The notes under the pieces: model-generated | The model's input: only the letters and a program-made list of their open reading frames with translations | Told to the model about the DNA's origin: nothing | The model's database searches: none | Shown here: in pieces, positions 2,912-53,820 of the stretch | Position numbering within the stretch: position 1 is the stretch's first letter | Layout of the letters: every line of letters starts with the position of its first letter | NCBI RefSeq assembly: GCF_003018255.1 | Contig: NZ_CP027440.1 | Length of the DNA stretch: 64,000 nucleotides | From: Escherichia coli | GTDB taxonomy: Bacteria; Pseudomonadota; Gammaproteobacteria; Enterobacterales; Enterobacteriaceae | Direction: 5' to 3' (one strand) | Translations under genes and position numbers: made by a program

Positions 2912-4213
<1,302 letters not shown>

Positions 4214-4417
4214 TTCTGGTACGCCTGGCAGATATTTTGCCTGCCGGGCTAACAGTGTGATACATTGCTGTGTCGGTTAAGCCATTACGCTATCCGACAC
4301 AGTGTTAAATCCTCGCTTTTTTCCTTCCCCGAACTGAAATAAATTAGCGACACAGCTTGTGGCTGGTTTATCATCAATATAAATGTATTTTTCCCCGATT
4401 TCCCTTTTGAGGTTGAT

Positions 4418-4843
4418 GTGCAGTTAACGAGTTTCACTGATTACGGATTACGTGCGCTGATCTACATGGCGTCATTGCCAGAAGGGCGGATGACCAGTAT
4501 TTCTGAAGTGACTGACGTCTACGGCGTCTCCCGTAATCATATGGTCAAAATAATCAATCAACTTAGTCGTGCCGGCTACGTGACTGCTGTTCGTGGAAAA
4601 AATGGCGGCATTCGCTTGGGTAAACCGGCGAGTGCGATACGTATTGGTGATGTGGTGCGCGAGCTGGAGCCCTTATCGCTGGTGAATTGCAGCAGTGAGT
4701 TTTGCCACATTACACCTGCCTGTCGGTTGAAACAGGCACTTTCTAAGGCCGTGCAAAGTTTTCTTACGGAACTGGATAACTACACGCTTGCCGATTTGGT
4801 TGAAGAGAATCAACCGCTTTATAAATTATTGCTGGTGGAGTGA
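4418..4843 (+). CDS. nsrR: NO-sensing Rrf2-family repressor NsrR
   Basis: 141 aa; [18 protein letters not shown] Rrf2 HTH, three Cys near C-terminus; immediately upstream of rnr. Confidence 0.93.
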
Positions 4844-4881
4844 CGAAAATCTTCATCAGAGATGACAACGGAGGAACCGAG

Positions 4882-7323
4882 ATGTCACAAGATCCTTTCC
4901 AGGAACGCGAAGCTGAAAAATACGCGAATCCCATCCCTAGTCGGGAATTTATCCTCGAACATTTAACCAAACGTGAAAAACCGGCCAGCCGTGATGAGCT
5001 GGCGGTAGAACTGCACATTGAAGGCGAAGAGCAGCTTGAAGGCCTGCGTCGCCGCCTGCGCGCGATGGAGCGCGATGGTCAACTGGTCTTCACTCGTCGT
5101 CAGTGCTATGCGCTGCCGGAACGCCTCGACCTGGTGAAAGGTACCGTTATTGGCCACCGTGATGGCTACGGCTTTCTGCGGGTTGAAGGGCGTAAAGATG
5201 ATTTGTATCTCTCCAGCGAGCAGATGAAAACCTGCATTCATGGCGATCAGGTGCTGGCTCAGCCGCTGGGCGCTGACCGTAAAGGTCGTCGTGAAGCGCG
5301 TATTGTCCGCGTACTGGTGCCAAAAACCAGCCAGATTGTTGGTCGCTACTTCACCGAAGCGGGCGTCGGCTTTGTGGTTCCTGACGACAGTCGTTTGAGC
5401 TTCGATATCTTAATCCCGCCCGATCAGATCATGGGCGCGCGGATGGGCTTTGTGGTGGTGGTTGAACTGACCCAACGCCCGACTCGCCGTACCAAAGCGG
5501 TGGGTAAAATCGTCGAAGTGCTGGGCGACAATATGGGCACCGGCATGGCGGTTGATATCGCTCTGCGTACCCATGAAATTCCGTATATCTGGCCGCAGGC
5601 TGTTGAGCAACAGGTTGCCGGGCTGAAAGAAGAAGTGCCGGAAGAAGCAAAAGCGGGCCGTGTCGATCTGCGCGATTTACCGCTGGTCACCATTGATGGC
5701 GAAGACGCCCGTGACTTTGACGATGCAGTTTACTGCGAGAAAAAACGCGGCGGCGGCTGGCGTTTGTGGGTCGCAATTGCCGACGTCAGTTACTATGTGC
5801 GTCCGCCAACACCGCTGGACAGAGAAGCGCGTAACCGTGGTACGTCGGTGTACTTCCCTTCGCAGGTTATCCCGATGCTGCCGGAAGTGCTCTCTAACGG
5901 CCTGTGCTCGCTCAACCCGCAGGTAGACCGCCTGTGTATGGTGTGTGAGATGACCATTTCGTCGAAAGGTCGCCTGACGGGCTACAAATTCTATGAAGCG
6001 GTGATGAGCTCTCACGCGCGTCTGACCTACACCAAAGTCTGGCATATACTGCAGGGCGATCAGGATCTGCGCGAGCAGTACGCCCCGCTGGTTAAGCACC
6101 TCGAAGAGCTGCATAACCTCTATAAAGTGCTGGATAAAGCCCGTGAAGAACGCGGCGGGATCTCGTTTGAGAGCGAAGAAGCGAAGTTCATTTTCAACGC
6201 TGAACGCCGTATTGAGCGTATCGAACAGACCCAGCGTAACGACGCACACAAGTTAATTGAAGAGTGCATGATTCTGGCGAATATCTCGGCGGCGCGTTTC
6301 GTTGAGAAGGCCAAAGAACCGGCACTGTTCCGTATTCACGACAAGCCGAGCACTGAAGCAATAACCTCTTTCCGTTCAGTGCTGGCGGAACTGGGGCTGG
6401 AATTGCCTGGCGGTAACAAGCCGGAACCGCGTGACTACGCGGAACTGCTGGAATCGGTTGCTGACCGTCCTGACGCAGAAATGCTGCAAACCATGCTGTT
6501 GCGCTCGATGAAACAAGCGATTTACGATCCGGAAAACCGTGGTCACTTCGGTCTGGCATTGCAGTCCTATGCGCACTTTACTTCGCCGATTCGTCGTTAT
6601 CCTGACCTGACGCTGCACCGCGCCATTAAGTATCTGTTGGCGAAAGAGCAGGGGCATCAGGGGAATACCACTGAAACCGGCGGCTACCATTATTCGATGG
6701 AAGAGATGCTGCAACTGGGTCAGCACTGTTCGATGGCGGAACGTCGTGCCGACGAAGCAACGCGCGATGTGGCTGACTGGCTGAAGTGTGACTTCATGCT
6801 CGACCAGGTAGGTAACGTCTTTAAAGGCGTAATTTCCAGCGTCACTGGTTTTGGCTTCTTTGTTCGCCTGGATGACTTGTTCATTGATGGTCTGGTCCAT
6901 GTCTCTTCGCTGGACAATGACTACTATCGCTTTGACCAGGTGGGGCAACGCCTGATGGGCGAATCCAGCGGCCAGACTTATCGCCTGGGCGATCGCGTGG
7001 AAGTTCGCGTCGAAGCGGTTAATATGGACGAGCGCAAAATCGACTTTAGCCTGATCTCCAGCGAACGCGCACCGCGCAACGTCGGTAAAACGGCGCGCGA
7101 GAAAGCGAAAAAAGGCGATGCAGGCAAAAAAGGCGGCAAGCGGCGTCAGGTCGGCAAAAAGGTCAACTTTGAGCCAGACAGCGCCTTCCGCGGCGAGAAA
7201 AAACCGAAGCCGAAAGCAGCGAAGAAAGACGCGAGAAAAGCGAAAAAGCCATCGGCGAAAACGCAGAAAATAGCCGCAGCGACCAAAGCGAAGCGTGCGG
7301 CGAAGAAAAAAGTGGCAGAGTGA
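4882..7323 (+). CDS. rnr: Ribonuclease R (RNB-family 3'-5' exoribonuclease)
   Basis: ORF track 4840..7323; start moved to ATG at 4882 ([17 protein letters not shown]) giving 813 aa; S1 domain and Lys-rich basic C-terminal tail. Confidence 0.93.
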
Positions 7324-24224: not shown

Positions 24225-24686
<462 letters not shown>

Positions 24687-24710
24687 TTCGTTATTCAACG
24701 AGACGTAAAA

Positions 24711-24740
24711 ACGCCGACCAGTGGTCGGCGTTTTGCTTTT
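24711..24740 (+). terminator. Rho-independent terminator of the rpsF-priB-rpsR-rplI operon
   Basis: acgccgaccagtggtcggcgt hairpin followed by tttgctttt. Confidence 0.85.
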
Positions 24741-25046
24741 AAGTGATAAAAACCGCAGAAACAGACGTTCCCTCCATAAATCTCTTGCTATTCCTTTTAT
24801 AAAAAGTTCGCAGTACCCATACCTGGCCCCCAGCCTCGCCGCTGGTAGTTCGTGTCATGTTTTTTACGCGTAAAACACGACAAAAGCATCAATACAGCGA
24901 TCGTCTCACTTGTATGATAATAAAAACAATATGTTATATATGAATGTGCTGTTATTTTATTGTTTTTATATATAAAAAGATAAAATACCATCACTTTCGT
25001 AATCTTGAACGCTTTGCAGGTGCGTTCAATCCAATAAATGCTAATA

Positions 25047-25067
25047 TTATGGCTATCATAGCCATAA
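25047..25067. promoter_or_regulatory. Perfect 21-bp palindrome, candidate operator of the HTH/HipA-like module
   Basis: TTATGGCTAT-C-ATAGCCATAA (10-bp arms, 1-bp centre) ending 21 bp upstream of the HTH gene start codon. Confidence 0.45.
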
Positions 25068-25087
25068 AAAGATAAAATATTATCACT

Positions 25088-25579
25088 ATGGGTAAAAAAA
25101 CAGCACCGTTACTCCCTTATACGAATCAGATGCTTAGTGAATTTGGTGAGCGGCTGAAACTTGCTCGTTTACGACGCAGGCTTACCGCAAAGCAAGTTGC
25201 TGAACGTGCTGGGATGTCGCCAATAACATTGCGCTCTCTGGAGTCAGGAAGTGCAGGGGTCACGATAGGGGCATATTTGTCTGTGATGCAGGTTTTGGGC
25301 CTGGAAACGGATTTAAATAAGCTTGCAGCTGAAGACGACTTAGGGCGTCAGCTCCAGGATTCCCGTTTGATTAAAAAAAGAGGGCTTTCTCGTGCATCAA
25401 GTAAGAATGAAGAAGGTTCTCAGACAGCCTCATTGCAGATGAGGCACGAGAAAGAAGGTCATCTCACCACGGATTTAACAGCACTGGCAGAAGGCTCGAC
25501 GCCATCTATTACAGGAGAAACATCAACCTCTCTTGCAGCACTATTAAAACCGATAAAAAAACCGTTAAAAGGAAATTAA
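25088..25579 (+). CDS. XRE-family HTH protein, HipB-like putative antitoxin with long C-terminal extension
   Basis: 163 aa; HTH_XRE signature around [32 protein letters not shown]; Ser/Thr/Glu-rich low-complexity C-terminal ~75 aa; stop 25577-25579 is 2 bp before the kinase ATG. Confidence 0.75.
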
Positions 25580-25581
25580 TT

Positions 25582-26850
25582 ATGGCATTAATCGGAGTGT
25601 ATGCGGATTGGGAAGGCCTGGATGGTCCGGAGCGGATTGGTTATTTACACAGTCGCCGCACTCGGACGCGTGAGATATTTGAGTTTGAGTACGATAAAAA
25701 GGCGCTTGCAGATCCTTCACTTAATTTCATTCAGTTAGATCCTGAAATAATGTTGTATGAGGGAGCACACTACCCAATTCCTCCAAAGGATAAATTTGGT
25801 GCATTTAGTGATTCCTGCCCGGATCGTTGGGGGCGTATGCTAATGAAGCGTCGTTTTGAGAGGGATATTCGAGACGGGTTATGTGATAAAGACTCCCACC
25901 TTTATGAGTCTGATTATCTACTAGGTGTTCATGATCTTTATCGGGTTGGGGCCCTTCGATACAAACGTGAAGACGCTGGAGAGTTTCTTGATAATCGCAT
26001 TGATGTTGCAGCCCCACCATTTACCGAAATAGCGAGTCTGGAAAGGGCTAGCCGGGCAATTGAAGAAGATCCTGATAATAAAGAGCTAATGGGGCAAAAA
26101 TGGTTAAGAATGCTAATCGCTCCGGGGGGATCATTAGGGGGGGCACGTCCGAAAGCCAGTGTTGTTGATGAAGCTGGGCATCTCTACATCGCTAAATTTC
26201 CCAGTGTAAAAGATGAGTATGATGTTGGTGGATGGGAAATGGCCGTTAATGCACTTGCTGTTGGCTGTGGACTGAATGTTGCACCTGCTCAGGCGCATAA
26301 ATTTGCCAGCAATTACCATTGTTTTATGGTTCGTCGTTTTGACCGCACTAATGCGGGAAGGCGTCTGCATTTTGCTTCGGCTATGACACTAACCAGGCAT
26401 CAGGATGGTGAAGATGCCTCTACAGGTGTGAGTTATCTGGAATTAGCAGATGTTCTTATCAGGCATGGCGCGCAGACTAATACTGATCTTAAGGAACTCT
26501 GGTCCAGGATTGTTTTTAATATTCTTGTTTCTAATACCGATGATCATTTACGCAATCATGGATTTATCTTGATACCAGGAAAAGGTTGGCGGCTTTCTGA
26601 GGCATATGATTTGAATCCTGTGGTCAGGTCTGATGGTTTAAAACTCAATATTACGGAAAATGACAATGCACTTGATTTGGAATTAGCTAGAGAAGTTGCA
26701 GAGTATTTTCGACTTAGTTTGACGGAAGCTGATGACATTATTGCTAATTTTAGAGGGATTGTCAGTCAGTGGCGAATCATTGCCGAGCGTCTGAGATTAC
26801 CTGGTCGTGAGCAAGAGTTAATGGCAGAGGCATTCAGAGCGTCAATTTAG
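25582..26850 (+). CDS. HipA-family serine/threonine kinase (putative type II toxin)
   Basis: 422 aa; Gly-rich loop GGSLGGARPKAS, catalytic-loop motif NTDDHLRNHG and HipA_C-like C-terminus (DLNPVV...); aaggaa RBS upstream of ATG. Confidence 0.8.
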   Translation: MALIGVYADWEGLDGPERIGYLHSRRTRTREIFEFEYDKKALADPSLNFIQLDPEIMLYEGAHYPIPPKDKFGAFSDSCPDRWGRMLMKRRFERDIRDGLCDKDSHLYESDYLLGVHDLYRVGALRYKREDAGEFLDNRIDVAAPPFTEIASLERASRAIEEDPDNKELMGQKWLRMLIAPGGSLGGARPKASVVDEAGHLYIAKFPSVKDEYDVGGWEMAVNALAVGCGLNVAPAQAHKFASNYHCFMVRRFDRTNAGRRLHFASAMTLTRHQDGEDASTGVSYLELADVLIRHGAQTNTDLKELWSRIVFNILVSNTDDHLRNHGFILIPGKGWRLSEAYDLNPVVRSDGLKLNITENDNALDLELAREVAEYFRLSLTEADDIIANFRGIVSQWRIIAERLRLPGREQELMAEAFRASI

Positions 26851-26947
26851 AATAGTTATTTCGATATATTCGCTAAATCATAAATTTGCGAAGCAATGCC
26901 AGTAGATACTGAACGTTTTGGAAGAGACGTTTAATTTATGAGAAAAA

Positions 26948-26982
26948 TAGAAACGCTACAAAGCTAAATTATAGCGTTTCTA
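26948..26982. terminator. Bidirectional hairpin between the HipA-like gene and the convergent MFS gene
   Basis: tagaaacgct ... agcgtttcta inverted repeat (10-bp stem, ~15-nt loop) in an AT-rich context. Confidence 0.5.
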
Positions 26983-26992
26983 TGTAAAATAA

Positions 26993-28270
26993 TTAGCTTG
27001 TCGCTAACTGTACTTGTGGTTCTTCGTCTTTAACTTTGATAAGCATCCACAGCGCAATGGCGCCAATAATGTCAAAGAAAGCCAGGGCAATAAAGAACGG
27101 CGCGAAGCCAATAATGTGAACGAATGCCCCGATAAACAGGTTGAAAATCAACTGACCGCTCCATGCACAGGCTCCTGCCATACCCACAGCGGTAGCTACT
27201 TCGTCTTTTTTGAATAGGTCACCGCCCAGAGTTGCTGCAACAGTAGAAAGACATTGATGCGAGAATGCGCCAATGCTAATCAGTAATACGGCGATGTAGG
27301 GATTTTCGACAATACTCACCAGACCAATCGTCATCATAATGACGGCTGCAATAGTGAAGGTAATTCTTCGTGAGTTAATTAAACTCACGCCGCGATCGTG
27401 GAAGAACTTCGCGACAAAACCACTGGCTAAACAGCCGAGATCGCCCAGCAGGAAAGGTAGCCAGACGAACATGGCAATTTCTTTCAGGCTAAAATGCAGC
27501 GTTTCGACGAAGAAAATCGGTACCCAGAAGTTAATGGTTCCCCATGCCGGGTCAGCGAGAAAACGCGCGATGCCAATCCCCCAGAAATTACGTTGGCTGA
27601 GGATATGCTTGATTGACGTTTTTTCTTTCTTATCTGTTTTAAGATGCTGTTCTTGCCCAGACTCAATATAGTGGCGCTCTTCATCAGAAAGGCGTTTAGC
27701 ATCTTTTGGATCTTTATAACAAAAGAACCAAAATAAAGCCGCGAGTAAAGCAAGGCTACCTGAGACAATAAACGCAAATTGCCAGCTATGAAACATAATG
27801 CACCAGGCAATCAACGGTGGAGCAAGCATCGCGCCGAGTGAGGTGCCCATATTGAAAACACCTGTCGCCACGCCACGCTCTTTTGCCGGGAACCATGTTG
27901 ATGCGGTTTTTACACCCGCAGGAATTGCCGATGCTTCGCTGAAACCCATCAGGGCGCGCATAAATGCCAGACCTGACCATGTTCCTGTCAAGGCATGCCC
28001 CATTGTCGCCAGGCCCCAGATTGCGGCACATATCGCAAAACTTAACTTCAGACCCACGGTATCAATAAAGAAGCCCATTATCGGTTGCCCCAATGTATAG
28101 GCCAACTGGAATGCACTGACAATCCATGAATATTGTTCTTTGGTTATTCCGGTTGTCTCCATAATCGTTGGAGCCGCAATACCTAACGCCGTTCTGTCCA
28201 GATAATTGATTACAGTGATAAAGCATACGAGGGCAATCATATGCCATCGATAATTCTTTATTTTATTCAT
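26993..28270 (-). CDS. MFS transporter, anion:cation symporter family (ExuT/hexuronate-transporter-like)
   Basis: 425 aa, 12-TM-like hydrophobicity; MNKIKNYRWHMIALVCF...WFPAKERG...KEIAMFVWLP resembles ExuT/DgoT-type sugar-acid transporters as recalled from memory. Confidence 0.8.
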   Translation of the reverse strand: MNKIKNYRWHMIALVCFITVINYLDRTALGIAAPTIMETTGITKEQYSWIVSAFQLAYTLGQPIMGFFIDTVGLKLSFAICAAIWGLATMGHALTGTWSGLAFMRALMGFSEASAIPAGVKTASTWFPAKERGVATGVFNMGTSLGAMLAPPLIAWCIMFHSWQFAFIVSGSLALLAALFWFFCYKDPKDAKRLSDEERHYIESGQEQHLKTDKKEKTSIKHILSQRNFWGIGIARFLADPAWGTINFWVPIFFVETLHFSLKEIAMFVWLPFLLGDLGCLASGFVAKFFHDRGVSLINSRRITFTIAAVIMMTIGLVSIVENPYIAVLLISIGAFSHQCLSTVAATLGGDLFKKDEVATAVGMAGACAWSGQLIFNLFIGAFVHIIGFAPFFIALAFFDIIGAIALWMLIKVKDEEPQVQLATS

Positions 28271-28362
28271 TTTTAAACCTTTTAATTATATTAATAAACC
28301 CTGGTTGTTGGTATTTCCATGTAATAGGCAATAAAAATCAGGTACAGAGGAAATATTGAAAA

Positions 28363-30435
28363 TTATTGTGTGTAAATGTCTCCCTTTAAAAAATCTGGCC
28401 AGTTTTTTTCAAAGTAAATACCGTTAATACACGGTTGCATACGTAAAGACTTTACTTCGGTAATAAAAGAACCTTGCGAATATTGAATTGTTAATTTGTG
28501 ATTTTTGTCTTCAGCGAGTTCAGAGCGAAAACGCCATTCTTCTTTTGCGCCGCGACGAGTTTGTGGTAGGCATTTGCCTTGTGGATCAATAACCATACGC
28601 GCCCCACGGCTACCACCACCAGCATCAATATAATGCGTTAATTGTGTTAATACCGCGGCAGAAGTCAGCGCCATATGCCGCCACATAAACAGCTCGGCAA
28701 CTTCACCCACATGTTTGATTGCCAATCCATGCCGTTGGACAAATTCGTTCAATAGCAGGGCATCACGAGTGGCACGTCGGACTTTATCGGCATGGCAAAT
28801 AAATCCCGCATAGTCAGACATTCGTGCCTGAATTTTTTCTCTCACAACCGACAACGGCATCCCGGTCCCGTTATCGTGCGCCTGAGTAATGATCTCTCTT
28901 ATAGAAGCCAGTGCCGGAGCTACCAGCTGTGCTATATCTCCATCAATATTACGTTTTTGCGTGCAACCAATAAAACGTGCCAGACGAACAGCAAAAACCT
29001 GCCCGGCATTCAATGCCGCACCACCAGGGCGAGTGACGCCGTGTGTGCCAGCAACTTCCCCCACGGCGAAACAGCCGGGCAGGGAGGTTTGTCCCCAGAT
29101 ATCCACTTCAATGCCGCCATTCATATGCTGATTATTCATGGCAAACTGCAAAGGCTGTGTGGTGAGATCGTAACCGTGCATCTTATACAGCGAGATAGAC
29201 AGCGGATTCATTCGTTGCAGCCGTTCGATGGGCGATGGTGCCAGAGCGTCGTTATTTTCCAGATACGCGCGAACGTCGTCGTCCAGTCGATCTAATGAGA
29301 AGGGCAGGTCACCCGGCACCGCTTCAGGATTGCGATTGAAATCCATAAATACCTGACGCCCTGATTGCTGCTCTTGCGCTACAGCCATATCTAACAAGCT
29401 GGAGCCAAACTCCATTACCCGAGTGGCGTGGAACGGCCACTGATAGCCTTTACGAAAAATGTTTGAAGCCAGCTCCTGGGTGGTGCGATAGTAATCCGCG
29501 AGGAAGTTATACTCGTTGCCCCCGGCATCCACGGAATAGATATGTGGGATCACCTGCACATAGGTGCCGGACAAATTCCACGGAAACGTGCTGCGCGGTG
29601 TGCCTATACCAAACTGGCTTTCAGTCAAATTGGTTAGCGTCAGACCTTCTTCCAGCGCCAGCCCCAGCGAGCCGAAACATTTGTGTGGGTACACACTGTC
29701 GCGATAAAGCTCGCCAGGCCCTCCTGTTGCCAGTACCACATTGGGCGCAATCACAATTGCCAGCCCCCATGGGTTATGGACGCGATGACCGGTCGCGAGG
29801 ATAGCCCCCGCCACGCGGTCTTCGCCGTTTTCGTCACGCTGATGCAGCAGTTTAATCACTGTTGCACTGGTCAACATTGGGATAGCAAGACGCTGTACTT
29901 CTTCCAGCAGCACTTTCACCATTAACCTTGAGGTACGTGGCCCACACGAGGTTGCACGCCCGGCTTCGTCATGGTCGGTTTGATAACGAAGAATCGCACC
30001 ATAGCGATCTTCCGGTAATTCCAGACCAAGATATTGCAACCCGCCAAGAGTGTGCAGAGAACCTACCGCTTCGACATAAGCAGTGTCGTGATCCATCGCC
30101 CCACCACTCGCCAGTGCCTCTGCCAGTTTGGTGAAGTTGTCGCCGTTGCCCGCGGTAGCGGCGGTAAACAGCGTCTGTTTATCGGAACCGGAGCAGGCCG
30201 ATGTTCCCATGTATAACCCGGCGGTGGCGATTAACACATTTTGCTGGCGGCGTTTAAGTTCCACAGCTGCACGCAGCCCGGCTGCACCACTGCCGACTAC
30301 CAGGGCATCTGTTTGCCAAAGTGGGTAATCAACACCGTCTACCGTGACAACCCATGCGGGTTCTGCCTGTGCAAAACCCTTTGGGAAAGTAACGTGCGTC
30401 AGCGCATCAAGGATGGTGTCATCAAGCTGACTCAT
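28363..30435 (-). CDS. FAD-dependent oxidoreductase (succinate dehydrogenase/fumarate reductase flavoprotein-like superfamily)
   Basis: 690 aa; N-terminal Rossmann dinucleotide motif VVGSGAAGLRAAVEL; start ATG overlaps the stop of the upstream CoA-transferase gene (ATGA). Confidence 0.7.
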   Translation of the reverse strand: MSQLDDTILDALTHVTFPKGFAQAEPAWVVTVDGVDYPLWQTDALVVGSGAAGLRAAVELKRRQQNVLIATAGLYMGTSACSGSDKQTLFTAATAGNGDNFTKLAEALASGGAMDHDTAYVEAVGSLHTLGGLQYLGLELPEDRYGAILRYQTDHDEAGRATSCGPRTSRLMVKVLLEEVQRLAIPMLTSATVIKLLHQRDENGEDRVAGAILATGHRVHNPWGLAIVIAPNVVLATGGPGELYRDSVYPHKCFGSLGLALEEGLTLTNLTESQFGIGTPRSTFPWNLSGTYVQVIPHIYSVDAGGNEYNFLADYYRTTQELASNIFRKGYQWPFHATRVMEFGSSLLDMAVAQEQQSGRQVFMDFNRNPEAVPGDLPFSLDRLDDDVRAYLENNDALAPSPIERLQRMNPLSISLYKMHGYDLTTQPLQFAMNNQHMNGGIEVDIWGQTSLPGCFAVGEVAGTHGVTRPGGAALNAGQVFAVRLARFIGCTQKRNIDGDIAQLVAPALASIREIITQAHDNGTGMPLSVVREKIQARMSDYAGFICHADKVRRATRDALLLNEFVQRHGLAIKHVGEVAELFMWRHMALTSAAVLTQLTHYIDAGGGSRGARMVIDPQGKCLPQTRRGAKEEWRFRSELAEDKNHKLTIQYSQGSFITEVKSLRMQPCINGIYFEKNWPDFLKGDIYTQ

Positions 30436-48268: not shown

Positions 48269-53820
<5,552 letters not shown>

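Follow-up and report, generated by a model that had tools for sequence, protein, structure and literature searches.

A Hairpin between Convergent HipA-Family and MFS Transporter Genes of Escherichia coli as a Probable Terminator of the Transporter Operon

Bidirectional terminators of convergent Escherichia coli genes (Ju et al. 2019, SEnd-seq, as outlined in bioRxiv 10.1101/2022.10.23.513370) place one hairpin between convergent 3' ends. According to the Liu-lab model, hairpins between convergent E. coli genes can be pause sites that position polymerase collisions and need not look like canonical terminators (bioRxiv 10.1101/2022.10.23.513370). Rho-independent terminators and REP/BIME palindromes are the other described systems closest to the element considered here. 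We report the analysis of a hairpin between a HipA-family kinase gene and a convergent MFS transporter gene in 64,000 nucleotides of E. coli contig NZ_CP027440.1 (RefSeq assembly GCF_003018255.1), a stretch referred to below as the window. The hairpin probably serves as an ordinary Rho-independent (intrinsic) terminator for the minus-strand transcription unit in which MFS is the last gene.

The MFS hairpin shares with the bidirectional terminators, as far as they are outlined in the preprint, its place as the one hairpin between convergent 3' ends; it differs from them in having no U-tract on the hipA side, in its asymmetric placement (9 nt past the MFS stop, 96 nt past the hipA stop), and in being inherited with one unit only. 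It resembles the Rho-independent terminator of rplI, 2.2 kb away, in being a stem-loop after an operon's last stop codon with a U-rich tail, a similar minus-strand energy and tail score, and pairing maintained by compensatory substitutions. The rplI terminator differs in its symmetric A-tract/T-tract flanks and its good tail both ways, which the MFS hairpin lacks; the latter has a long AT-rich stem and an interrupted U-tract. REP/BIME elements, likewise extragenic palindromes between convergent genes, differ in that the MFS hairpin is single-copy, AT-rich rather than GC-rich, without related copies in the window, and without an Rfam or repeat match.

The locus and its hairpin

The gene order is rpsF-priB-rpsR-rplI (plus strand), HTH-hipA (plus strand), a six-gene minus-strand operon, a TetR gene (plus strand), and ytfB. 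The operon encodes the MFS transporter, a FAD-dependent oxidoreductase, a CoA-transferase, an enoyl-CoA hydratase, a sugar-phosphate isomerase, and a ketoacyl reductase. Gene labels were checked by Pfam, and positions 25000 to 28400 are 100% identical to E. coli strain JNE23-011. The HipA-family gene has been described as hipA-2 (TA28) in PMC7232551. The features referred to below are as follows.

24708-24734, no strand assigned: rplI terminator, a palindrome (A-tract, stem, T-tract) whose tails score well both ways (-4.6 to -4.7); bounds the variable slot on the left
24740-26946, no strand assigned: variable slot of 2.2 kb, holding the HTH-hipA module here and yjfZ or nothing in other E. coli
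25088-25579, plus strand: HTH (Xre-type) putative antitoxin gene, 163 aa (HTH_31, E = 7e-11); upstream partner of hipA
25582-26850, plus strand: HipA-family kinase gene (HipA_C, E = 2e-47); convergent with MFS
26912-26931, plus strand: weak hairpin AACGUUUUGGAAGAGACGUU followed by UAAUUUAU (-5.7 kcal/mol)
26938-26946, minus strand: U-rich tail UUUUCUCAU, directly 3' of the stem (tail score, -4.49 to -4.93)
26947-26983, minus strand: probable terminator hairpin; in minus-strand RNA, a 15-bp stem including one G-U pair, with a 7-nt loop at 26962-26968
26993-28270, minus strand: MFS transporter gene (MFS_1, E = 3e-62), last gene of the minus-strand operon; stop codon at 26993-26995

The original prediction had described a 10-bp stem within a 142-bp gap, and both are borne out: the arms (tagaaacgct at 26948-26957 and agcgtttcta at 26973-26982) were checked in the sequence, and 142 bp separate the hipA stop (26850) from the MFS stop (26993). 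The inverted repeat is longer than first reported, with 12 perfect pairs (26947-26958/26972-26983), and its plus-strand form consists of these 12 pairs and a 13-nt loop. The 15-bp stem of the minus-strand RNA is AT-rich, with 4 G-C pairs. Searches of the gap for open reading frames of at least 20 aa and for promoter-like sites returned none, and an Rfam scan of 24500-28500 (E <= 1) returned nothing at the hairpin and three matches elsewhere, all below gathering scores.

A functionless chance palindrome would not be out of place in so AT-rich a gap, where short palindromes are not rare: 40 of 5,000 dinucleotide shuffles of the gap (0.8%) produced a perfect inverted repeat of 10 bp or more (loop, 3 to 20 nt). 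In the whole 64-kb window, seven such repeats were observed against about 1.0 expected, another of the seven being the rplI terminator. The minus-strand fold (-18.7 kcal/mol; z = -4.9) was equalled by 1 of 200 shuffles and the plus-strand fold (-14.0 kcal/mol; z = -2.6) by 7 of 200. The minus-strand z score, the fit of position and U-tract to a terminator, and pairing kept by compensatory changes across haplotypes with diverged loops and flanks leave the chance reading with next to no credit. The hairpin is real and selected.

Repeat-family (REP/BIME, ERIC) and operator readings were considered and ruled out by copy number and distribution: the hairpin region occurs at one place per genome in 1,294 genomes, and the half-site ATAGAAACGCTA is limited within the window to the two arms and one chance match at 50307.

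Several further observations were made in the flanking units. The GC content of the MFS gene is about 46%, against 52 to 55% in the other operon genes, and the gene is preceded by 92 nt of AT-rich spacer that contains a promoter-like site (28390-28362). Morganella, Edwardsiella, Providencia, Yersinia, and Gilliamella also have MFS homologues (77 to 89% amino acid identity), there unaccompanied by the oxidoreductase and CoA-transferase genes. These sequence features give the operon a mosaic look, and a promoter dedicated to the MFS gene is possible. Two copies of a 24-nt direct repeat, ATAAAAAGATAAAATA(CC/TT)ATCACT, precede the HTH gene (24972-24995 and 25064-25087; 92-bp spacing), with a perfect 10+10 palindrome, TTATGGCTAT/ATAGCCATAA, between the two copies at about 25047-25067. 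These repeats and the palindrome are likely operator sites for HTH-hipA autoregulation.

Direction of termination

The two strands of the hairpin were compared by folding energy and TransTermHP-style tail score. On the minus strand, hairpin energy is -17 to -18.7 kcal/mol, versus -14 to -18 kcal/mol for the rplI terminator, and the tail score of -4.5 to -4.9 is comparable with the -4.7 of the latter; the tail UUUUCUCAU has 5 or 6 U in its first 8 nt, although its U-tract is interrupted. On the plus strand (hipA direction), hairpin energy is -9 to -14 kcal/mol, the stem is weaker, the loop is 13 nt, and the tail GUAAAAUAAUU has 2 or 3 U in its first 8 nt (score, -2.0 to -2.9). The consensus terminator scan called the site on the minus strand only. 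The minus strand thus carries the features expected of an intrinsic terminator (a stable short-loop stem, a 3' U-tract, a position after the last gene, and a conserved, covarying structure), whereas the plus strand, with its 13-nt loop and poor tail, does not combine a stable short-loop stem with a 3' U-tract. By these sequence criteria, the hairpin is a predicted one-directional intrinsic terminator for the MFS transcript and not a two-way insulator. Its efficiency may be moderate because the stem is AT-rich and the U-tract UUUUCUCAU is interrupted. We assign the hairpin to the operon because of its position after the MFS stop, its strand asymmetry, its conservation, and its co-inheritance with the operon.

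The hairpin had been predicted to terminate both convergent transcripts. That it is of terminator type and lies between convergent genes is upheld; termination both ways is unsupported by the sequence features, given the plus-strand loop (13 nt) and tail (-2.0 to -2.9). A true bidirectional terminator would stop the MFS-operon and hipBA transcripts at the same hairpin, through weak plus-strand intrinsic termination or through pausing combined with head-on RNA polymerase collisions. Such a reading draws on the position between convergent genes, on the 12 perfect pairs that fold on both strands (plus strand, -14 kcal/mol; z = -2.6), on the Liu-lab collision model, which needs no canonical terminator look (bioRxiv 10.1101/2022.10.23.513370), and on the want of a better hipA terminator in the gap than the -5.7 kcal/mol hairpin. 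Against it stand the difference in tail score between the strands (-2.0 to -2.9 for GUAAAAUAAUU versus -4.5 to -4.9 on the minus strand), the 13-nt plus-strand loop, and the location of a hairpin inherited with the operon at 96 nt from the hipA stop. Collision would moreover need both units to be well transcribed, which we consider unlikely, the TA pair being autorepressed and the operon under TetR control. As the site is asymmetric and expression of both units is likely low, two-way termination is the less likely reading, and we regard it as rather improbable.

The hairpin at 26912-26931 is the only, and a poor, candidate for a terminator of hipA's own. The search for one in the gap yielded just this -5.7 kcal/mol structure, which is not conserved in a divergent locus (L007, described below) and was set aside; after the HipA homologues in Azotobacter and Pantoea, no canonical terminator was seen.

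If the hairpin is an intrinsic terminator of the operon, RNA polymerase leaving the MFS gene would transcribe AUAGAAACGCUAUAA-UUUAGCU-UUGUAGCGUUUCUAU and then UUUUCUCAU; the 15-bp stem would form in the nascent RNA with a weak rU:dA hybrid in the active site, and the transcript would be released about 45 to 55 nt past the MFS stop codon. Termination at this point would spare hipA from antisense transcription that originates in the operon. In the hipA direction, the hairpin would be at most a pause site or a leaky terminator, and the hipBA transcript may end at the weak upstream hairpin, in partial stops at the MFS hairpin, or by Rho acting on untranslated RNA antisense to MFS. A literature search found no published transcript 3'-end mapping for strains carrying the locus.

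The hairpin gives this accessory metabolic operon (FAD-oxidoreductase, CoA-transferase, enoyl-CoA hydratase, MFS) a defined 3' boundary, of little import beyond annotation. Read-through from the operon into the hipA-2/xre-3 TA pair is probably blocked; transcription of the TA pair is probably free to run on, antisense to the transporter gene. Both points would be relevant to TA expression studies.

Haplotypes and conservation of the pairing

The survey covered 5,426 complete E. coli genomes, with the MFS gene present in 1,692, the HTH-hipA pair in 1,045, and both side by side in 1,038. Three arrangements were found.

Type A: rplI-hipBA-MFS (this window), about 1,040 genomes
Type B: rplI-yjfZ-MFS (e.g., CE10), about 290 genomes
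Type C: rplI abutting MFS directly (e.g., strain H1; also E. whittamii), about 360 genomes

Strains of type A among the matches include CFT073, Nissle 1917, ST131, and E2348/69. The 3' regions on the minus strand were aligned with MAFFT, without guidance, for three haplotype classes only: types A, B (represented by two alleles), and C. In all three types, a hairpin falls in the same alignment columns after the MFS stop. Standard pairs occupy 91.7% of cells, versus 37 to 53% when the 3' partners are slid by 1 to 3 columns. Both partners change in three pairs (G-C/A-U at columns 16-46, A-U/G-C at 19-43, and C-G/U-A at 22-40), and in four more only one partner changes, by way of G-U pairing that is valid on minus-strand RNA only. 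Such G-U pairs are minus-strand specific in all three haplotypes; 15 pairs form on that strand versus 12 on the plus strand. A B-type genome that matches the CE10 reference at 93.6% identity over the 141-nt junction region has no change in the stem and one substitution in the loop.

Sequence homology is clear for the A-to-B compensation (G-C to A-U). Types A and C are nearly 100% identical in the MFS gene and about 57% identical just past its stop codon, and two of the three compensatory pairs, which hinge on aligning A with C, are uncertain for this reason; that the C-type and A-type hairpins are homologous is plausible but unproven. The type C hairpin is small and without a good U-tract, and the rplI terminator lies about 15 nt beyond it, where it probably serves both rplI and MFS.

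The alleles also bear on termination in both directions. The plus-strand tail of the B allele scores -3.6 to -3.95, with no convergent gene facing it; the A allele, which faces hipA, has the poorer plus-strand U-tract (at best -2.9). A better plus-strand U-tract in the allele without a convergent gene speaks against two-way termination having been selected in the hipBA arrangement, although, as the B-allele tract is reasonable, some two-way activity in the family is possible.

The variable slot and independence of the two units

Types A, B, and C have the same sequence as far as GCGTTTTGCTTT, where the rplI terminator ends (24739), and part at the following base; the rplI terminator itself was found in 5,424 of the 5,426 genomes. 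Homology between types A and B on the operon side starts at 26948, the foot of the hairpin. These junctions (24739/24740 and 26948) mean that the hipBA module fills a 2.2-kb slot bracketed by the two terminators, one established and one probable. By these comparisons, the hairpin is the right border of the slot, on the operon side of the junction, and the rplI terminator is the left border. The HTH-hipA module in the slot was acquired independently. A slot between two terminators that holds hipBA, yjfZ, or nothing represents tidy, unsurprising accessory-gene turnover.

E. coli K-12 has neither the operon nor the hairpin; it keeps a TetR remnant (ytfA), and its breakpoint lies some 45 nt past the B-type hairpin. 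Comparison of K-12 MC4100 (3737-4138) with the TetR region of the window shows ytfA to be a TetR gene truncated at its N terminus, and the K-12 order rplI-yjfZ-ytfA-ytfB is therefore a deletion derivative of the arrangement with yjfZ and the operon. Judged by sequence comparison, the deletion took out the whole operon plus its terminator hairpin. From the A-B homology beginning at 26948 and the loss of both operon and hairpin in K-12, it follows that the hairpin is inherited with the operon and not with hipBA.

The one point in favor of a DNA-level element, whether a target for recombination or insertion or a palindrome bound by protein, that marks the site of cassette exchange (hipBA, yjfZ) and is not an RNA signal, is that breakpoints fall exactly at the hairpin foot (26947/26948) and right after the rplI terminator T-tract (24739/24740). 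Yet neither terminal repeats, direct or inverted, nor a target-site duplication was found around the hipBA module, the slot has no integrase or transposase gene, further occurrences of the half-site in the window do not exceed chance, and each genome has a single copy of the region. That some pairs are kept as G-U points to selection on an RNA structure rather than on DNA, and purifying selection on the terminators themselves would also put breakpoints at terminator edges; a DNA-level role is extremely improbable. In a related conjecture, terminator hairpins (that of rplI and the present one) would be preferred break and join points for cassette replacement in the rplI-ytfB region, and a mechanism that targets the base of such a stem would have inserted HTH-hipA. 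The shared junction nucleotides of the three contents (hipBA, yjfZ, none) would then be accounted for; we consider this conjecture very improbable. An intrinsic terminator that travels with the operon remains the preferred reading.

The TA pair and the operon had also been predicted to be independent units, and the proposed check for their separate occurrence in other genomes agreed with this. About 650 E. coli genomes, as well as E. whittamii and K. spallanzanii, carry the operon but not hipBA; HTH-HipA pairs with 72 to 76% HipA identity are found on Azotobacter and Pantoea plasmids among unrelated genes. Within E. coli, hipBA is essentially never without the operon (1,045 genomes versus 1,038 to 1,041). 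The case for independence is this distribution across genomes, not the presence of the hairpin, and the pair and the operon are separable units on these sequence grounds. A scan of contigs from other species with the MFS protein returned mostly MFS homologues in other gene contexts, and the operon was common only to K. spallanzanii and E. whittamii. Most of the 26 MFS homologues examined in other genera have an unrelated stem-loop of their own behind them, in many cases with a T-run. Given their other gene contexts, these loci support the general point that such genes end with hairpins of their own, not covariation of the present hairpin.

The divergent locus L007 (E. coli EC23HZZ201, 4001-6872) has an HTH gene 90% identical to that of the window, hipA in fragments, and an MFS gene only 76% identical. 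An extra MaoC-domain gene follows MFS after 26 nt, and a different, GC-rich 16-bp hairpin (AGAAATACGTACCTGC...GCAGGTACGTATTTCT) lies after MaoC, the new last gene, and before the hipA remnant. This arrangement fits a hairpin placed behind whichever gene comes last in the unit.

The hipBA allele of the window is unusual, with at least 99% identity in only 7 of 1,045 genomes; at the same threshold, the adjoining 111-nt intergenic region was matched in 1,039 genomes and the MFS gene in 973. A rare hipBA allele beside common flanks suggests that recombination in this lineage left a breakpoint close to the 3' end of hipA. IS2, ISEc35, IS1, and ISVsa5 interrupt the hipBA/MFS region or yjfZ in several E. 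coli genomes, and the region therefore attracts insertions. On CP054241.1, an 834-kb E. coli sequence labeled as a plasmid, a hipA match of 92.7% identity is split into 5 pieces (606592-607849); the record is probably a misassigned chromosomal fragment or a low-quality assembly.
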